Assembly (NCBI GenBank): GCA_045588405.1
Contig: JAZNEE010000122.1
Coordinates: 1 to 31,218, forward strand
DNA from: Acutalibacteraceae bacterium
Lineage (GTDB): Bacteria > Bacillota > Clostridia > Oscillospirales > Acutalibacteraceae
DNA: 31,218 bases
Reading direction: 5' to 3'
Part shown: piece after piece, positions 5,126 through 12,097 of the stretch
Position numbering within the stretch: the first letter of the stretch is position 1
Layout of the letters: every line of letters starts with the position of its first letter
Position numbers and translations under genes: made by a program
The notes under the pieces: model-generated
Told to the model about the DNA's origin: nothing
The model's input: the letters and a program-made list of their open reading frames with translations, nothing else
Database searches by the model: none

Positions 5126-5941
5126 TTACAGATTAAGGAAATCTTTTCTGTAAGGAAGACCAAATGCCTCGATGACGTCGCGAAGCTCGGTATCGAGAAT
5201 GGTGTTAACGTGGGGCATATGAGCGGTGAGCATGTAAAGCTGTGCTGCCTTTTCAACAGTTTCGATAAGACCAAAGGTTTCGTCCATATCTTTACCTGCA
5301 CCGTAGATGCCGTGGAGACCCCAAACAACCAAGCGGTACTCTTCCATCTTCTTGGCGGTTGCAACACCGATTTCGTTATTGCCGCAAACCATCCAGGGCA
5401 AAACGCCGATACCGTCGGGGAAAACAACGATACACTCGGTGCACATCTCCCAAATGGTGTGGGTGAACTTCTTATCGTCAAGCTCGTGAACGTGAGTCAT
5501 AGCAAGAGTGTATGTAGGATGGGTGTGCATAACAACGCGGTTCATAGGATCCTTTTTAAGACGTGCCATGTGGCTCATAAGGTGTGCAGGGAACTCGCTT
5601 GTGAACTTGCCACCATCTTTATAGCCCCAAAGAAGCTCTGCAGAGGTGCCGTCCTTTGCGATACGAACAATGCCGAGGTTGGTCTCGGGATCAATTTCAA
5701 CGTTCTTGAAATATTTACCGGTACCGGTAACGATGAAAATTTTGCCGATAAGCTCGGTTGCATCAAAGCCTAAAGGAATGGTACGGATAACATTATTGAG
5801 GTCAAGGTACTCTGCAACCTGCTCGGTTTCGAGCATGTAGCTGATGTTACCGCCGTTACGTTCATCCCAACCAAGACGGTACATATTAGCGGTTGCTCTC
5901 ATCATGTCTTCAACAAAAGGTGCCTTAAAAATGTCTTTCAT
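5126..5941 (-). CDS. rhaD: Rhamnulose-1-phosphate aldolase (class II aldolase)
   Basis: GWDERNGGNIS, VTGTGKYF, PTSE-like FTSEFPAH, metal-binding HTH (MHTHPT), WGLHGI; 271 aa. Confidence 0.88.
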   Translation of the reverse strand: MKDIFKAPFVEDMMRATANMYRLGWDERNGGNISYMLETEQVAEYLDLNNVIRTIPLGFDATELIGKIFIVTGTGKYFKNVEIDPETNLGIVRIAKDGTSAELLWGYKDGGKFTSEFPAHLMSHMARLKKDPMNRVVMHTHPTYTLAMTHVHELDDKKFTHTIWEMCTECIVVFPDGIGVLPWMVCGNNEIGVATAKKMEEYRLVVWGLHGIYGAGKDMDETFGLIETVEKAAQLYMLTAHMPHVNTILDTELRDVIEAFGLPYRKDFLNL

Positions 5942-5966: not shown

Positions 5967-7379
5967 TTATAAACTGTTAAGTTTTTCTTCAAGAAGCTTG
6001 CGGATAACGGCAGGATCGCCAACACCCTTAAGTTCCTTCATAATAAGACCGAACAAGCCTTGCATTGCCTTTGTTTTGCCACCCTTATAGTCATCAACCG
6101 CCTTCTGATTTTCGGCAATTACGCGACAAACGGTGTCAAGCACAACGCTTTCGTCAACCTTGGCGTTAAGTCCGTTCACGTCGCAATATTTGTCAACGTC
6201 AACATCAGACTCAAACACAGCAGCAAGAACCTTTTTACCTGCAGCACGGGTGATTTCAGCCTTTTCAACAAGCTCGATGATACGAGCAAGCTTTTTAGGC
6301 TCGATAGAAAGGGTTTCAAGTCCCAAATAGTTCATTCGGCTCATACATTCGGTCAAAATCCAACCGGCAACCGCTTTGGGGTTGCAACCAAATGCAACAA
6401 CCTTATCAAAAAACTCACAAAGGGTTAAATCGGAAGCGAGAACTGCGGCATCCTTTTCGTTGATGCCCATGTCAACATACTTCTGACCCTTTTCTTCTGC
6501 CGTTGCGGGCATACTTGCTCTGATTTTCTCAAGCCAAGCATCGTCAATAACGATGGGCATAAGGTTGGGATCGGGGAAATAACGGTAATCAGCGGCGGTT
6601 TCCTTGTTACGCATAGGGAAGGTGCGACGCTTGATTTCGTCCCAACGTCTTGTTTCCTGAACAAGCATTTCGGTGCGACGTTCGATTGCATCAACGTGAC
6701 GAACCTTTTCAAACTCGATAGCGTCCTTGATTTCGGCAAACGAGCTCATATTCTTGATTTCGGAACGAACGCCAAACTCGGTTGAACCTTCGGGACGAAC
6801 TGAAATGTTAACGTCGCAACGCATTGCACCCTCTTCGCACTCGGAAATACCTGCGAACTGCAACGAAGATTTAAGCTTTTTAAGATAAGCAATAACCTCA
6901 TCCGAACTACGGAAGTCGGGCTTGGTAACTATCTCAATAAGCGGAACGCTGGTACGGTTATAGTCAACGAGCGAAGTGTTGGTTGCATCGTCGTGAACAA
7001 GCTTACCTGCGTCTTCTTCAACGTGAATCTGTTTAATGCCGATCTGTCTGCCACCAATCTCAACCGAACCCTCAACGCAAATAGGATGGAACCACTGGGT
7101 TATCTGATAAGCGGAAGGAAGGTCGGGATAGTAATAGCTCTTTTTATCAAAGGTGGTATATTGATTGATTTTGCAGTTGAGCATAAAGCCTGCCTTTACT
7201 GCCAGTTCAATAGCGTGCTTGTTGGTGACGGGCAACATACCGGGCATACCGCTGCAAGCAGGGCAAACGCAATCGTTAGGCTCATCGGCAGCAGCGTGAC
7301 CACCGCAAGAACAGAACAATTTGGAATCGGTGGCAAGTTCAACGTGGGTCTCAAGACCAATAACTAATTCGTATTTCAT
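5967..7379 (-). CDS. gatB: Asp/Glu-tRNA amidotransferase subunit B
   Basis: IGLETHVEL, YYPDLPSAYQITQ, HVEEDAGKL, DYNRTSVPLIEIV, RCDVNIS, EIKN, YRYFPDP and a YqeY-like tail. The metal-binding motifs appear intact. Confidence 0.95.
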   Translation of the reverse strand: MKYELVIGLETHVELATDSKLFCSCGGHAAADEPNDCVCPACSGMPGMLPVTNKHAIELAVKAGFMLNCKINQYTTFDKKSYYYPDLPSAYQITQWFHPICVEGSVEIGGRQIGIKQIHVEEDAGKLVHDDATNTSLVDYNRTSVPLIEIVTKPDFRSSDEVIAYLKKLKSSLQFAGISECEEGAMRCDVNISVRPEGSTEFGVRSEIKNMSSFAEIKDAIEFEKVRHVDAIERRTEMLVQETRRWDEIKRRTFPMRNKETAADYRYFPDPNLMPIVIDDAWLEKIRASMPATAEEKGQKYVDMGINEKDAAVLASDLTLCEFFDKVVAFGCNPKAVAGWILTECMSRMNYLGLETLSIEPKKLARIIELVEKAEITRAAGKKVLAAVFESDVDVDKYCDVNGLNAKVDESVVLDTVCRVIAENQKAVDDYKGGKTKAMQGLFGLIMKELKGVGDPAVIRKLLEEKLNSL

Positions 7380-7394
7380 TGTAAAACTTCCTCC

Positions 7395-8549
7395 TTATTC
7401 CATAATTTCGGCAATTTTAAGAAGCTTGCCGTCGGCAAAATGATCACCAATAAGCTGAACACCCTTTGTCACAACTGCAGGCATACCTGTTATGGATGCA
7501 AGGCAGGTGAACTTGCTTTCATCGAACACCTTCAAGAAAGCATCGGTTTTGTAGCTTAAATCAAAACTACTGCTAGCAGGGGTTAAAACAGCATCGAATT
7601 TTGCGAAAATATCTTTAAGTGTTTCAACGGCAACACGACGGATTTTGAGTGCTTTATCATAGCAATCGTCATATCTGCCTTTTGACAAAACGTCGGAGCC
7701 ATAGATAATGGTGGCTTTGGTTAAGAAACCAAATGCTTCGGTACGGCTGCCAACATACAAATCATCAATGTTTTTGTAGCTTGCAGTGCGATGACCGTAT
7801 TTTACACCGTCAAAACGGGACAAATTGTTGGTGGTTTCAGCGCTCATCAAAATTGTCCAAGCGGTTTGAATCTCGTTTACAGCGTCAAGCGAAATTTCTT
7901 CAACTAATGCGCCTTTTTCTTCCATTGCTTTTTTATAAGCATCAATTTTTGCCTTAACGTCGTCGTTAGCGGCTGCATAAAGTTCTTTTACAAGGGCGAT
8001 TTTCATACCCTTTACATCGGCATTTACTTCATAATCATATTTTTCGGTGGGTAAAGAAGTGCCGTCTTTAGAGTCGTGACCTGCAACGGCTGTCAAAACC
8101 TCTCTTGCTTTGGCGGCGCACTTTGCGGTAACGCCAACCTGCTCACCCGAGCAAGCGCAAGCAATAATGCCGTAACGCGAAACGGTGCCATAGGTGGGTT
8201 TTACAAAGGTAGCGCCCGTAACAGCGGCGGCACGACGGGGTGCACCGTTTAAATCAACGTTTAATGCAACCTCAACGTCACCTGCCATAACGGCTTTTGC
8301 AGCGGCAGCGGTTTCGCCCTTAAAATAAGAGGTTTCGCCAATTACGTCGAGTCCAAACTCGCCAACGTTTGTTTTACCTTTGACGGTAAAGCCTGATTTT
8401 TCGGCTTTGTTTACAACCTCGGCCGAGAAAAGAGGCTTGAAGTTTTCAAGCATTTTAGAGCCTGCAGTAGCAGCGGTGTCCTTGACGAGCAAGGTGTCGT
8501 CAACAGCCAAGTTGCCGTTTTTGTTTATTTCGTTTATATAAAAGCTCAT
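7395..8549 (-). CDS. gatA: GatA-like amidase-fold subunit, N-terminally shortened, catalytic triad not recognisable
   Basis: SKMLENF, GKTN, KPTYGTVSRYG, NLSRFDGVKYG, ALKIRR align with GatA, and the gene lies between aspS-gatC and gatB. About 384 aa. Start placed at ATG 8549 behind GAGGTG. Confidence 0.88.
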   Translation of the reverse strand: MSFYINEINKNGNLAVDDTLLVKDTAATAGSKMLENFKPLFSAEVVNKAEKSGFTVKGKTNVGEFGLDVIGETSYFKGETAAAAKAVMAGDVEVALNVDLNGAPRRAAAVTGATFVKPTYGTVSRYGIIACACSGEQVGVTAKCAAKAREVLTAVAGHDSKDGTSLPTEKYDYEVNADVKGMKIALVKELYAAANDDVKAKIDAYKKAMEEKGALVEEISLDAVNEIQTAWTILMSAETTNNLSRFDGVKYGHRTASYKNIDDLYVGSRTEAFGFLTKATIIYGSDVLSKGRYDDCYDKALKIRRVAVETLKDIFAKFDAVLTPASSSFDLSYKTDAFLKVFDESKFTCLASITGMPAVVTKGVQLIGDHFADGKLLKIAEIME

Positions 8550-8559
8550 CATTAACACC

Positions 8560-10665
8560 TCACTTTACAAGTCTCGGAACCTGCCAGCTGTCTTCGGTGC
8601 TTTGAGGCGCACCTTTAAGCAGGTCTTCACGGGCAAAGGGTTGCTCGCGTTTATCGTCACGAAGAATATTGGTCATAGGCAAAACGTGAACCATAACGTC
8701 TTTACCCTCGGTATCAACCTTGCCCATTTCATCTTCTTTGTTTTTCATTGCTTTGAAGATTTCCTTCATAGCGGTTTCTTCTTCGGCAGTGAATTTAAGT
8801 TCGTTTACCTGCTGAAGTCCTTTAAGTTTATCCTTGCCACCCGAGGTTACACCTGCTGCAGCCTTAACGGTTTCGGCAAAAGCGTCTGCATCGCCACCCT
8901 CAACACCGATGGTAGCGCCTTGCTTACCTCTAACCTGAACGTTGGCTTCAAAGAGCTGAAGCTCGGTAACTTCACTCGGAGCGCCAAGCAACTGGTCCTG
9001 TGCAGTTCCGTCAAGCGGGAATGCAATAACGTCACGAATGGTTTCGGTATCGGCAAGAAGCATAACAATTCGGTCAACACCGGGTGCCATACCTGCATGA
9101 GGCGGTGCACCAAACTGGAACGCATTATAAAGTGCGCTGAATCTACGTTCAACCTCATCCTCAGAATAGCCTGCTATTTCAAAAGCTTTTCTCATGATTT
9201 CGGGGCTGTGGTTTCTAACAGCACCGGATGCAAGCTCAATACCGTTACATACAAGGTCGTACTGATATGCAAGGATTGTGGTTGGGTCTTTTGTGAGCAA
9301 AGCTTCAAGACCACCCTGAGGCATTGAGAACGGGTTGTGAGTGAATATAATGCTATCGGTAGCTTCGTCGAGCTCATACATCGGGAAGTCAACAACAAAG
9401 CAGAACTCGAACGAATCTTTATTAATAAGACCAAGCTCGTTACCAAGCCAGGTGCGGATAACACCTGCATTTTTATCGGCGGTGTTGGAAGAAGTGTCGC
9501 AAATGAAGAAGATGGTCTCGCCTTCTTTAAGTCCTGTGAGAAGCGCGATTTCCTTCTTCTGTTCCTCGGTCATAACCTTGGTGATGGGGTCATCTTTAAA
9601 CTTGTAACCGTCGGCTTCAAGCAAGGTGATATGAGCAAGACCTGCCATTTTAGCCTGCTTGGTTGCAAACTCCAAAGACTTATCGAAGAACCATCTTTCA
9701 GCCTTACAAGGAGCCACGATACCGCGAACAAACTTGTTTTTAAAGGGCTTGAACTCAACCCTTGTGAACATCTCGGTCAAATCGCAGATGATAAGCGGGT
9801 TGCGAAGGTCGGGCTTATCTGAACCGTATTTTGCCATACTTTCAGCATAAGGAATGCGTCTGAACGGCGAAGCGGTAACAGGTTTATCAGAGAAGGTGCG
9901 GAAAACGTTGCTTACAACGTCCTCACAAATCTGCAAAACCTCGTCTTGGGTTGAAAAAGCCATTTCAAAGTCGAGCTGATAGAATTCACCGGGTGAACGG
10001 TCAGCACGAGCGTCCTCATCACGGAAGCAGGGTGCAATCTGGTAATATTTATCAAAGCCCGAAACCATAAGCAACTGTTTGAACTGCTGAGGTGCCTGGG
10101 GAAGCGCATAGAACTTGCCGGGATGCTTACGGCTGGGAACGAGGAAGTCACGAGCACCTTCGGGTGAAGATGCGGTGAGGATAGGAGTTTGAATATCAAG
10201 GAATCCTCTTTCCTCCATGAGCTTTCTCATGTGTCCGATAACCTTCGAACGAAGAATAATGTTATTATGAAGTGCAGGGTTTCTAAGATCCAAGAAACGG
10301 TGCTTTAAACGAATGTTTTCGTTGGTGTCGGTTGCGCCGATTTCAAAAGGCAAGTCACGAGTACAGGTGCCCAAAATCTCAGCTTTATCGGCAACAAGCT
10401 CAACAAGACCCGTTTCAATTCTTGCGTTTACGGTGTCGGGGTCACGCTCGGTGACAACACCCGAAACCGACAAAACGGTCTCCTTACCTACTCCTTTAAG
10501 CAAGTTTTCGTCGTGGAAAACGACCTGGGTCACACCGGTTTCGTCACGAAGATCTACGAAAAGTACGCCGCCGTGGTCACGAATAACGTCTACCCAACCG
10601 GCAAGCTGAACATTAGCTCCGATGTGTTCCTTTCTTATTTCATTGCAACGATGAGTTCTATACAT
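8560..10665 (-). CDS. aspS: Aspartate-tRNA ligase (probably non-discriminating) fused at its C-terminus to a GatC-like domain
   Basis: YRTHRC, RDHGG, RLKHRFLDLR, PEGARDF, ALPQAPQ, QIAPCFRDEDARADR, GAPPHAG. The last ~88 aa resemble GatC (DTEG..VHVLPMTNILRDD..REDLLKGAP..WQVPRLV). Start ATG 10665 with GGAGG RBS. Confidence 0.93.
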   Translation of the reverse strand: MYRTHRCNEIRKEHIGANVQLAGWVDVIRDHGGVLFVDLRDETGVTQVVFHDENLLKGVGKETVLSVSGVVTERDPDTVNARIETGLVELVADKAEILGTCTRDLPFEIGATDTNENIRLKHRFLDLRNPALHNNIILRSKVIGHMRKLMEERGFLDIQTPILTASSPEGARDFLVPSRKHPGKFYALPQAPQQFKQLLMVSGFDKYYQIAPCFRDEDARADRSPGEFYQLDFEMAFSTQDEVLQICEDVVSNVFRTFSDKPVTASPFRRIPYAESMAKYGSDKPDLRNPLIICDLTEMFTRVEFKPFKNKFVRGIVAPCKAERWFFDKSLEFATKQAKMAGLAHITLLEADGYKFKDDPITKVMTEEQKKEIALLTGLKEGETIFFICDTSSNTADKNAGVIRTWLGNELGLINKDSFEFCFVVDFPMYELDEATDSIIFTHNPFSMPQGGLEALLTKDPTTILAYQYDLVCNGIELASGAVRNHSPEIMRKAFEIAGYSEDEVERRFSALYNAFQFGAPPHAGMAPGVDRIVMLLADTETIRDVIAFPLDGTAQDQLLGAPSEVTELQLFEANVQVRGKQGATIGVEGGDADAFAETVKAAAGVTSGGKDKLKGLQQVNELKFTAEEETAMKEIFKAMKNKEDEMGKVDTEGKDVMVHVLPMTNILRDDKREQPFAREDLLKGAPQSTEDSWQVPRLVK

Positions 10666-10704: not shown

Positions 10705-10920
10705 AAACAAAAACGTCCCGAGAATCTTTACGATTCCCGGGACGAGTATAAACCCGCGGTGCCACCCGTTTTGACGCCCAAAACAAGACGTCCTCTTTTA
10801 ATATTCAATTCCAAGTGGTCAAACGAAGTGTTGCCGAACTTACTACTCACTTTAAGCACGCTTTCAGCCGGTGACATGCTCTCTCTTTCAAGTTTTCCTG
10901 GAAAGTCGGGTCTTCATCGG
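10705..10920 (-). promoter_or_regulatory. T-box riboswitch leader of the aspS-gatC/gatA/gatB operon
   Basis: Minus strand shows an AGAGA-like box (AAAGAGAGAG), GCTGAA motif, T-box AACGGGTGGCACCGCGG (about 10770-10754) and terminator CGTCCCGGGAATC-GTAAA-GATTCTCGGGACG-TTTTTGTTT (about 10745-10705). Confidence 0.92.
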
Positions 10921-10924
10921 GTAG

Positions 10925-10953
10925 ATTATATCAAACATTTAAAAATTTGTCAA
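10925..10953 (-). promoter_or_regulatory. Consensus sigma-A promoter of the T-box leader
   Basis: TTGACA (10953-10948), 17 nt, TATAAT (10930-10925). Confidence 0.88.
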
Positions 10954-10960
10954 TACATTT

Positions 10961-12097
10961 TTAAATGAGCTCTTTTGCCAAAGCCTTTATCTGCTCTTTT
11001 GACTGCTCGTTTAATGCCGAGCGAACAGTTACGGTTGTTTCGGCAAAAGTGATTTCTTTACTGTTTTCAAAGTGTTTTTTAATGATTTTAGCAGCTTGAG
11101 GTGCCCAGGTTCCGTTTTCAATAATACCTATAAAACGGTTGCGATAGCCTCTTTCGACAAGCTCGTGAACAAACTCGCGCATAAAGGGGAAAATATCGCC
11201 GTTATAGGTGGTGGTTGCAAGCACTATTTTGCCGTAACGGAAGGCATCTTCAACACATTCTGCCATATCTGAGCGTGCCAAATCGTTGACAACAACCTTA
11301 GGACATCCCAAAGCCTTTAACTCACCTTCCAAAACTTCGACAGCAGCCTTTGTGTTGCCATAGACCGAGGTGTAGCAAATAGCAACACCTTCGCTCTCAA
11401 CACCATAGCTCGACCAGGTGTTATAAAGGTCAAGATAATAGCCCAGATTTTCGCTCAAAACAGGTCCGTGAAGCGGATAGATGGTGTTGATTTCCAAAGC
11501 GGCAGCTTTTTTAAGCACGTTTTGAACCTGAACACCGTATTTTCCAACAATGCCGATATAATATCTTCTTGCCTCGCAAGCCCAATCCTCATCGACATCC
11601 AAAGCGCCGAATTTTCCGAAAGCATCGGCAGAAAACAATGCTTTTTCGTTAGAATCATAGGTCATCATAACCTCGGGCCAATGAACCATGGGTGCCAAAA
11701 CGAAGGTAAGCTGGTGACCGCCAAGATCCAAAGTATCTCCCTCTTTTACAACAAGCCTGCGATCGGCATAATCGGTGCCGAAAAATGCACTCATCATATT
11801 GAAAGCCTTATCGGTTGCAACGATGGTTGCCTTAGGGTATTTTAAGGCAAAATTATGCACGTTGGCCGAATGGTCAGGCTCCATATGTTGAACGACAAGG
11901 TAATCGGGGGCTTTGCCCTCTAACGCTTTATCAATATTGGAAAGCCACTCGTCGCCAAACTTTTTATCAACCGAGTCCATAATTGCGATTTTGTCACCAA
12001 TCACCGCATAAGAATTATATGCCATTCCGTTAGGAACGATGTATTGACCTTCGAAAAGGTCGATCTCGTGGTCATTTACACCGACATATTTTATCAT
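10961..12097 (-). CDS. Flavodiiron protein (FprA family; metallo-beta-lactamase-like plus flavodoxin domains)
   Basis: HMEPDH, PMVHWPE, DAFG, PLHG, and flavodoxin-like YTSVYGNT. Start at ATG 12097 (GTG 12106 is an alternative). Confidence 0.9.
   Translation of the reverse strand: MIKYVGVNDHEIDLFEGQYIVPNGMAYNSYAVIGDKIAIMDSVDKKFGDEWLSNIDKALEGKAPDYLVVQHMEPDHSANVHNFALKYPKATIVATDKAFNMMSAFFGTDYADRRLVVKEGDTLDLGGHQLTFVLAPMVHWPEVMMTYDSNEKALFSADAFGKFGALDVDEDWACEARRYYIGIVGKYGVQVQNVLKKAAALEINTIYPLHGPVLSENLGYYLDLYNTWSSYGVESEGVAICYTSVYGNTKAAVEVLEGELKALGCPKVVVNDLARSDMAECVEDAFRYGKIVLATTTYNGDIFPFMREFVHELVERGYRNRFIGIIENGTWAPQAAKIIKKHFENSKEITFAETTVTVRSALNEQSKEQIKALAKELI

Follow-up and report, generated by a model that had tools for sequence, protein, structure and literature searches.

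In textbooks, Asn-tRNA and Gln-tRNA are made by a glutamine-dependent route through GatCAB, whose GatA subunit is treated as an obligatory glutaminase. We analysed a stretch of 31,218 nucleotides (nt; the window) from an Acutalibacteraceae bacterium of the Clostridia (GenBank assembly GCA_045588405.1, contig JAZNEE010000122.1), which carries a gene, here called gatA*, for a glutaminase-dead, N-terminally shortened homologue of GatA. The gatA* family is a natural and widespread exception to the textbook view: across hundreds of uncultured species from ruminant and animal gut, selection maintains the subunit although its glutaminase is dismantled.

The gatA* locus

The gene lies in an operon whose features in the window are the following.

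7395..8549, minus strand: gatA*, glutaminase-dead and N-terminally shortened GatA homologue, 384 amino acids from ATG 8549
8560..10665, minus strand: aspS::gatC, bacterial-type aspartyl-tRNA synthetase (AspRS) with a C-terminal GatC (NF001750, PF00152, PF02686)
5967..7379, minus strand: gatB2, full-length GatB (NF004012)
10735..10962, minus strand: putative T-box leader upstream of aspS::gatC (Rfam RF00230)

The three genes follow the order gatC-gatA-gatB, and relatives with a free gatC keep the identical order around gatA*. The gatA* product matched PF01425 with 165.8 bits over profile positions 53-445 and has the amidase-signature fold; against the GatA equivalog model TIGR00132 it scored 253.8 bits, under the cut-off of 481.1. 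By fold and position gatA* belongs to the GatA lineage. Because it fails the defining catalytic features of GatA, it should not be classed among the GatA glutaminases.

Translation most likely starts at ATG 8549, the start used by homologues; a GAGG is located 7-9 nt 5' of it and overlaps the stop codon of aspS::gatC. The frame is open. Both the open frame and a good ribosome-binding site had been reported in the first-pass annotation, which was made from the letters of the window, and both are upheld here. Residue numbers below refer to the 387-amino-acid open reading frame (ORF) that begins at GTG 8558; subtracting 3 gives the numbering of the 384-amino-acid protein from ATG 8549.

Loss of the glutaminase site in gatA*

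Enzymes of the amidase family work through a Ser-cisSer-Lys triad in which Ser178 is the nucleophile (PMC2330236). We compared gatA* residue by residue with Staphylococcus aureus GatA (2df4_A) in a HMMER alignment and aligned homologues with MAFFT. The altered sites were:

8499..8501, minus strand: codon GAC (Asp20), aligned with the catalytic Lys79 (HMMER alignment)
8298..8321, minus strand: 13-residue deletion after K80, then GETAAAA for GGSSGGS (HMMER and MAFFT)
8241..8243, minus strand: codon of Ala106, aligned with the nucleophile Ser178, within VDLNGAPRRAAA (HMMER and MAFFT)
7515..7859, minus strand: replaced glutamine-binding positions (HMMER and group comparison)

The first-pass annotation had claimed that all three catalytic residues are lost, and the alignment with 2df4_A bore this out. 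Lys79 is replaced by D20, and the GAC codon that had been read by eye at 8501-8499 was verified; close members of the family all have D or E there. The PGGSSGGS segment, described as deleted, is indeed missing: the 13 reference residues K140-G152 are gone between K80 and G81 of gatA* (junction at about 8319/8318), and cis-Ser154 aligns with E82 in the GETAAAA that stands in place of GGSSGGS. The segment at the deletion site is variable across the gatA* family. A106 occupies the nucleophile position, so the proposed exchange of Ser for Ala holds for gatA*; as a family-wide rule it fails, since the S178 position is hypervariable among family members (A, S, T, Y, E, M and others). The reported absence of the N-terminal region was recovered as well, the alignment beginning at chain residue 77 of 2df4_A and about 60 N-terminal residues being absent from gatA*. 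MAFFT placed an additional deletion of roughly 10 residues near the C-terminus.

The losses extend to the binding of the substrate. Residues R334 and D418 of the yeast enzyme bind glutamine and correspond to R358 and D425 of S. aureus GatA (PMC4027206). In gatA* the glutamine contact Y309 is replaced by W234 (7857-7859), R358 by T283 (7710-7712) and D425 by S348 (7515-7517). The motifs SKMLENF, KPTYGTVSRYG and NLSRFDG, which had been noted as kept around the lost residues, are all present.

We then compared 65 triad-bearing with 37 short dead (triad-less) representatives and recorded which positions reach at least 90% conservation in the triad group but are lost in the dead group. These were K79, D125, M129, G130, N143, P144, G152-S155, G172, T175, G176, S178 and P182, and further along the chain G190, Y309, E353, R357/358 and D423/425. 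The scaffold kept in the dead group comprised S93, L96, E126, F127, D174, G177, R200, KPTYG.VSRYG, S209 and NLSR.DG, among others. As judged from these alignments, the lost positions are those of the glutaminase site, which is dismantled as a unit as the scaffold motifs stay. By its sequence GatA* accordingly lacks the residues for generating ammonia from glutamine or asparagine.

GatA* might instead have acquired a new amidase site, for example from the Asp-Asp of AVDD and the Asn-Gly and Arg-Arg of VDLNGxxRR, and still free ammonia from glutamine, asparagine or another amide. Conservation specific to the dead family (D at 79, N at 176, R at 181 and E at 211) and a pocket region modelled with high confidence fit such a site. 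Several features of the same pocket do not: the loop forming the floor of the active site is deleted and its remainder varies in sequence and length, Y309, R358 and D425 are replaced by variable residues, and the hypervariability of the former nucleophile position argues against a new active site. The D/R pair may merely be a salt bridge filling the emptied pocket. We know of no amidase-signature enzyme that works without the Ser-cisSer-Lys triad, which counts further against a new site, and we regard this explanation as very improbable. An alternative triad nearby was ruled out, as the candidate positions vary.

Selection and predicted fold

Ratios of non-synonymous to synonymous substitution rates (dN/dS) were calculated by the Nei-Gojobori method for the genome of the window (G000) and its relatives G022 and G016; dS was 0.8-1.9 and thus partly saturated.

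gatA*: dN/dS 0.08-0.09
gatB2: dN/dS 0.03-0.05
aspS::gatC: dN/dS 0.04-0.05
canonical gatA of the same three genomes: dN/dS 0.10-0.17

gatA* is under purifying selection and is not decaying. An AlphaFold2 model of its product, made with a 37-sequence alignment, had a predicted local distance difference test (pLDDT) score of 94.2 and a predicted template-modelling score (pTM) of 0.92. Foldseek placed the model on GatA chains with a TMq of 0.88-0.92 and a root-mean-square deviation (rmsd) of 2.2-2.8, the match to 2df4_A reaching a TMq of 0.92 with an rmsd of 2.2.

A search of 5.8 billion proteins returned more than 100 clusters of 384-399 amino acids with 64-95% identity to gatA*, mostly unnamed or labelled 'hypothetical protein' and derived from metagenome-assembled genomes (MAGs) of Clostridia, Ruminococcaceae and Oscillospiraceae. 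All 16 aligned homologues in this identity range (64-95%) conserve AVDD and VDLNGxPRR and lack the Gly/Ser loop. Exchange of Lys79 for D or E and loss of the cis-Ser loop were also seen in more distant homologues, so that neither chance nor a sequencing error accounts for them. We confirmed 520 gatA* loci in species-representative genomes, and the same losses occur in hundreds of Acutalibacteraceae and Oscillospiraceae MAGs from ruminant and animal gut. The check proposed in the first-pass annotation, a survey of homologues for the same losses at dN/dS below 1, thus came out in its favour. Its proposal that a pseudo-enzyme subunit is kept as a scaffold is strengthened by the loss of the glutamine-binding residues, the dN/dS values and the retained fold.

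That gatA* is a decaying pseudogene, or an artefact of assembly or binning, could be suspected from its source, a 71%-complete MAG of 215 contigs, and from a score far under the GatA equivalog cut-off. The open frame with its low dN/dS, the recurrence of the architecture in hundreds of independent assemblies from many studies and the confident fold prediction leave practically no room for this explanation. Decay and artefact were ruled out by the dN/dS and conservation data together with the confident fold.

Recurrence of the loss and habitat

For a survey of the wider family we took the best 150 representatives of 50%-identity clusters (P0121-P0270), 136 of them full-length. Lys79 was absent from 64 of these 136, including forms of 470-500 amino acids. 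In a FastTree tree of the representatives, well-supported branches force at least 12 changes between triad present and triad lost; on this quick tree of 50%-identity representatives, loss of the triad appears to have happened repeatedly, at least 12 times. The gatA* of the window falls in a supported clade with at least 15 dead members.

Record titles of gatA* loci name goat, sheep, yak, deer and cattle gut MAGs. A word search of sequencing runs gave shares of 0.13 at most, from bovine and pig gut and manure runs, with no RNA run among them. Taken alone these shares suggest a habitat; the record titles are the stronger evidence. The ruminant and animal gut is an ammonia-rich habitat. Looking up ten distant dead-GatA cluster representatives yielded no cultured organism.

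Relatives that rely on dead GatA

The survey covered 40 relatives together with 199 genomes sampled evenly across the order (at least 90% complete), which fell into those with canonical GatA only, with both types and with dead GatA only. Dead GatA was the sole PF01425 match in G008, G039, G117, G123, G166, G202 and G211, which are 90-98% complete and belong to five GTDB families. All seven have an aspS-gatC-gatA*-gatB operon with a triad-less GatA*, and in G166 GatC is fused to AspRS as it is in the window. Asparaginyl-tRNA synthetase (AsnRS) was undetected in 7/7; glutaminyl-tRNA synthetase (GlnRS) is present in G008 and G039. As a control for the miss rate, AsnRS was undetected in 2/97 sampled genomes without any GatA (about 2%), so that seven misses by chance are not credible. 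The dead-GatA complex is therefore the only visible route to Asn-tRNA(Asn) in these seven relatives, though not in the genome of the window, and must still make Asn-tRNA(Asn) there. It follows that the dead-GatA complex has very probably kept its ability to amidate Asp-tRNA(Asn). AsnRS is present in other dead-only genomes (G005, G011, G017, G019, G023 and G163).

The suggestion of the first-pass annotation that GatB may draw its nitrogen from elsewhere is supported indirectly by these relatives, which have only dead GatA and no AsnRS. In the genome of the window, which also has a canonical gatCAB, the dead-GatA enzyme is a second system and not the sole one.

The operon partners of gatA*

The AspRS part of the fusion matched NF001750 (aspartate--tRNA ligase) with 737.5 bits and PF00152 with 370 bits. 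GatC is present at about 8581-8793: residues 640-709 matched PF02686 with 33.4 bits (cut-off 23), and the fusion matched TIGR00135 with 43.9 bits. The likely start of aspS::gatC is ATG 10665 and not the TTG 10710 given by the ORF caller, and orthologues align from residue 16. The fused AspRS would be non-discriminating, placing aspartate onto tRNA(Asn) as well.

gatB2 matched NF004012 with 562.7 bits (cut-off 338) and aligns end to end with Thermotoga maritima GatB (3al0_B, 396 bits). The motifs GLEtHVEL, EEDAGK, PLIEIV, RxDVN, KN, ETRRWD and DYRYFP are invariant with canonical GatB. From its sequence gatB2 looks intact, with kinase and transamidase motifs and a tRNA-binding tail. We infer that GatA*, GatC and GatB2 form a complex.

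The leader upstream of aspS::gatC contains the T-box motif AAACGGGUGGCACCGCG. In its predicted fold GAUGAAG pairs with CUUCGUU as the basal helix, and CAACA lies in the 3' internal loop beside the helix, with AAC at 10832-10830, then A 10829 and the closing helix. In eight homologous operons the leader sequences are highly divergent, and all have AAC and then a purine at the equivalent spot. By the usual rule for T-boxes, and thus by analogy, AAC is the apparent specifier, for asparagine. At the canonical locus of the same genome the T-box leader (L001:845-1065, 90.4 bits) has GAC at 931-933, an apparent specifier for aspartate.

If both specifiers are correct, the fused bacterial-type AspRS answers to the charging of tRNA(Asn), and the canonical set with its archaeal-type AspRS to that of tRNA(Asp).

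The complex might not amidate at all and serve tRNA in another way, for instance by sequestering Asp-tRNA(Asn), by passing it on or in regulation, with the canonical GatCAB doing all the amidating in this organism. The genome of the window, G016, G022, G003, G024 and G026 do keep a canonical gatCAB, and several dead-GatA genomes have AsnRS and AsnB and no strict need of an amidotransferase. GatB2, however, keeps all catalytic hallmarks and is held more tightly by selection than canonical gatA; a tRNA(Asn)-type T-box fits a supply function; and there are seven near-complete relatives with the dead-GatA set alone and no AsnRS. We consider a non-amidating role quite unlikely.

The genome of the window

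The assembly, a 1.2 Mb MAG divided among 215 contigs, is 71% complete. Its contig C197 carries a T-box leader, canonical gatC, gatA and gatB, and an archaeal-type aspartate--tRNA(Asn) ligase (ND-aspS) that matched NF003483 with 481.7 bits (cut-off 353). The canonical gatA encodes 477 amino acids and has AVKDN, PGGSSSGS and GSDTGGSIRQPA. GlnRS is present in this genome, so that the dead-GatA set would be a second amidotransferase dedicated to asparagine. AsnRS, AsnB and AsnA were not found in the genome; since it is 71% complete, their absence proves little.

In the genus sample, G000, G016 and G022, which have the closest operons, are the sole members without an AsnB-type asparagine synthetase, and AsnA is also absent from them. 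Asparagine in these three would have to be tRNA-made. Their dead-GatA operon proteins are 82-95% identical and their canonical GatA 67%, a gap that may stem from unequal rates of evolution or from the operon having moved laterally.

The asparaginase-like gene and the source of nitrogen

A divergent asparaginase-family gene is found outside the window and in relatives.

L036:898-2004, contig C141 of the same genome, outside the window: divergent asparaginase-family gene
L024:6567-7598; L025:6657-7658; L032:1344-2426; L033:7752-8726: divergent asparaginase-family genes in relatives

The copy in the genome of the window is an orthologue at 46-52% identity. The gene keeps TGGTI and HGTDT, and it scored 88-102 bits against TIGR00519 (type I asparaginase, cut-off 260) and 75-89 bits against GatD models (cut-offs 310-324). 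Asparaginase-family genes were counted across 28 + 41 genomes.

dead GatA only, no AsnRS: 8/8, one each
dead GatA with AsnRS (including G016 and G022, with the nearest operons): 0/9
canonical GatA, no AsnRS: 10/14
canonical GatA with AsnRS: 1/14

The asparaginase-family gene follows the absence of AsnRS and not dead GatA. This is most economically read as salvage of asparagine (Asn to Asp and NH3) in cells unable to charge free asparagine. The pattern suggests an unrecognised logic of asparagine salvage. As a local ammonia donor for dead-GatA complexes the protein is possible and not required. No GatD-type subunit was found in the window, and none co-occurs with dead GatA in the way a partner would, the gene being absent from the nine dead-GatA genomes with AsnRS and present with canonical GatA in AsnRS-less genomes. 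As an obligate partner it was ruled out by its absence from many dead-GatA genomes.

This bears on the idea that the divergent asparaginase-family protein is the ammonia-producing subunit, a bacterial counterpart of GatD docked on or near GatA*/GatB and hydrolysing asparagine or glutamine. The gene adjoins the operon in G008, G166, G039, G036 and G202, every one of the eight dead-only genomes without AsnRS carries one copy, and an orthologue exists in the genome of the window. The gene nevertheless tracks the absence of AsnRS, being missing from all dead-GatA genomes with AsnRS, G016 and G022 among them, and frequent in AsnRS-less genomes with canonical GatA; asparagine salvage is the simpler reading, and the window holds no such gene. 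We think such a subunit unlikely, if worth keeping in view. A related arrangement, which strikes us as a little more doubtful still, would make dead GatA the docking platform of a new kind of tRNA-dependent amidotransferase, and its port for ammonia. In gut Clostridia without AsnRS, free asparagine would be split beside the complex by an asparaginase-fold enzyme, and the resulting Asp and NH3 would feed the tethered AspRS and GatB. Deamidation followed by re-amidation would then salvage asparagine into Asn-tRNA(Asn) in a bacterial hybrid resembling GatD, and where the asparaginase-fold enzyme is missing the port would take ammonia from solution. G016 and G022, the closest operon relatives, have no asparaginase-family gene at all, so that free ammonia is the one candidate donor left for these two.

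A proposed second amidotransferase that may run on ammonia

On balance, and with moderate confidence, we favour the reading that gatA* is the dead structural subunit of a second, tRNA(Asn)-controlled and AspRS-tethered amidotransferase that uses ammonia from elsewhere. Uncharged tRNA(Asn) would turn the operon on through the T-box, and the tethered AspRS would load aspartate onto tRNA(Asn). GatB2 would phosphorylate and then amidate Asp-tRNA(Asn) to give Asn-tRNA(Asn). GatA* would be architectural only, holding GatC and GatB and keeping a remnant of the ammonia path, and would hydrolyse neither glutamine nor asparagine. The amide nitrogen would come from ammonia that GatA does not make, most likely the free NH3/NH4+ of the gut. 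In the genome of the window this dead-GatA system would stand beside the canonical glutamine-dependent gatCAB with ND-aspS; in some relatives it would be the sole amidotransferase.

Precedent for the use of ammonia exists. Amidotransferases of the GatCAB type accept NH4Cl for glutamine, bypassing the glutaminase, and in yeast GatFAB truncations that destabilised the glutaminase site of GatA raised NH4Cl-dependent activity (PMC4027206).

Several points weigh against this reading. The leader scored 48 bits (E 1.3e-9) against RF00230, under the gathering score of 93; at gathering thresholds Rfam gave no match in the window, and the T-box surfaces only at E-value thresholds. A structure prediction for GatB2, the GatC domain and GatA* scored 0.93, and the control keeping GatA* and GatC itself reached 0.88; this pair of scores is taken as evidence in neither direction. 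The genome of the window, G016 and G022 also hold a canonical gatCAB, and the dead-GatA complex is thus not demonstrably needed in them. The survey genomes are all MAGs, kin among them are not independent, and the absences rest on bins. Known GatCAB enzymes use NH4+ poorly, and free ammonia is the most likely donor by elimination. Finally, the asparaginase-like gene adjoins the operon in five of the eight AsnRS-less relatives, where its product could be the true source of nitrogen.

Comparison with known systems

Canonical GatCAB and the Asn-transamidosome (S. aureus 2DF4/2F2A, Thermus thermophilus 3KFU, Pseudomonas aeruginosa 4WJ3) share with the operon of the window the same three families, the gene order and the AspRS partner. 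They differ in that GatA* is without the triad, the GGSSGGS loop, the glutamine-binding residues and some 60 N-terminal residues, and in that GatC is fused to AspRS.

In Clostridium acetobutylicum, an aspS-gatCAB operon under the control of a tRNA(Asn) T-box has been described, next to another copy of gatCAB (Saad et al. 2012, J Biol Chem 287:20382, as cited in PMC4206432). Like the operon of the window it belongs to the Clostridia and combines AspRS with an amidotransferase set, and each of the two genomes has a further gatCAB; the leader in the window likewise appears to respond to tRNA(Asn). The C. acetobutylicum operon was described as an ordinary GatCAB, whereas that of the window has a dead GatA and a GatC fused to AspRS.

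Mammalian carbamoyl-phosphate synthetase I has an inactive glutaminase-like domain and takes ammonia as substrate. NH3-dependent NAD synthetase is likewise an ammonia-run amidotransferase whose glutaminase part is lost or inactive (PMC3376133). In both, as proposed here, the synthetase half is kept and the glutaminase half is absent or non-catalytic, although the families and reactions differ. To our knowledge no ammonia-run arrangement with a dead glutaminase has been described for a tRNA-dependent amidotransferase.

The GatA/GatB core of yeast GatFAB (4N0H/4N0I; PMC4027206) amidates with NH4Cl, but its GatA keeps the triad and binds glutamine, and the effect on ammonia use came from engineered truncations, in contrast to the natural dead subunit in the operon of the window. 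Archaeal GatDE combines a GatB-type kinase/transamidase with an asparaginase-fold ammonia producer, and some operon relatives carry an asparaginase-fold gene by gatB; GatDE, however, is without GatA and GatC, and the window is without an asparaginase-like gene. AtzE-AtzG of s-triazine catabolism (6C62; Foldseek rank 13, TMq 0.77) is also GatA-derived with a GatC-like partner. AtzE is an active amidase without GatB, whereas GatA* is inactive and stays with GatB. Full-text literature searches, which did not cover several key GatCAB papers, returned no published account of a GatA lacking the triad.

Should ammonia be what the complex runs on, translation in these bacteria would depend directly on its availability, and annotation of the subunit as 'GatA' or 'amidase' would mislead on its function. 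The family would then also be a natural experiment on the non-catalytic roles of GatA in assembly, the ammonia tunnel and coupling to GatB.

The gene downstream of the operon

A rhamnulose-1-phosphate aldolase gene (5126-5941, minus strand; TIGR02624, 406.8 bits) begins 25 nt after gatB2. It is probably unrelated in function and may be co-transcribed with the operon.

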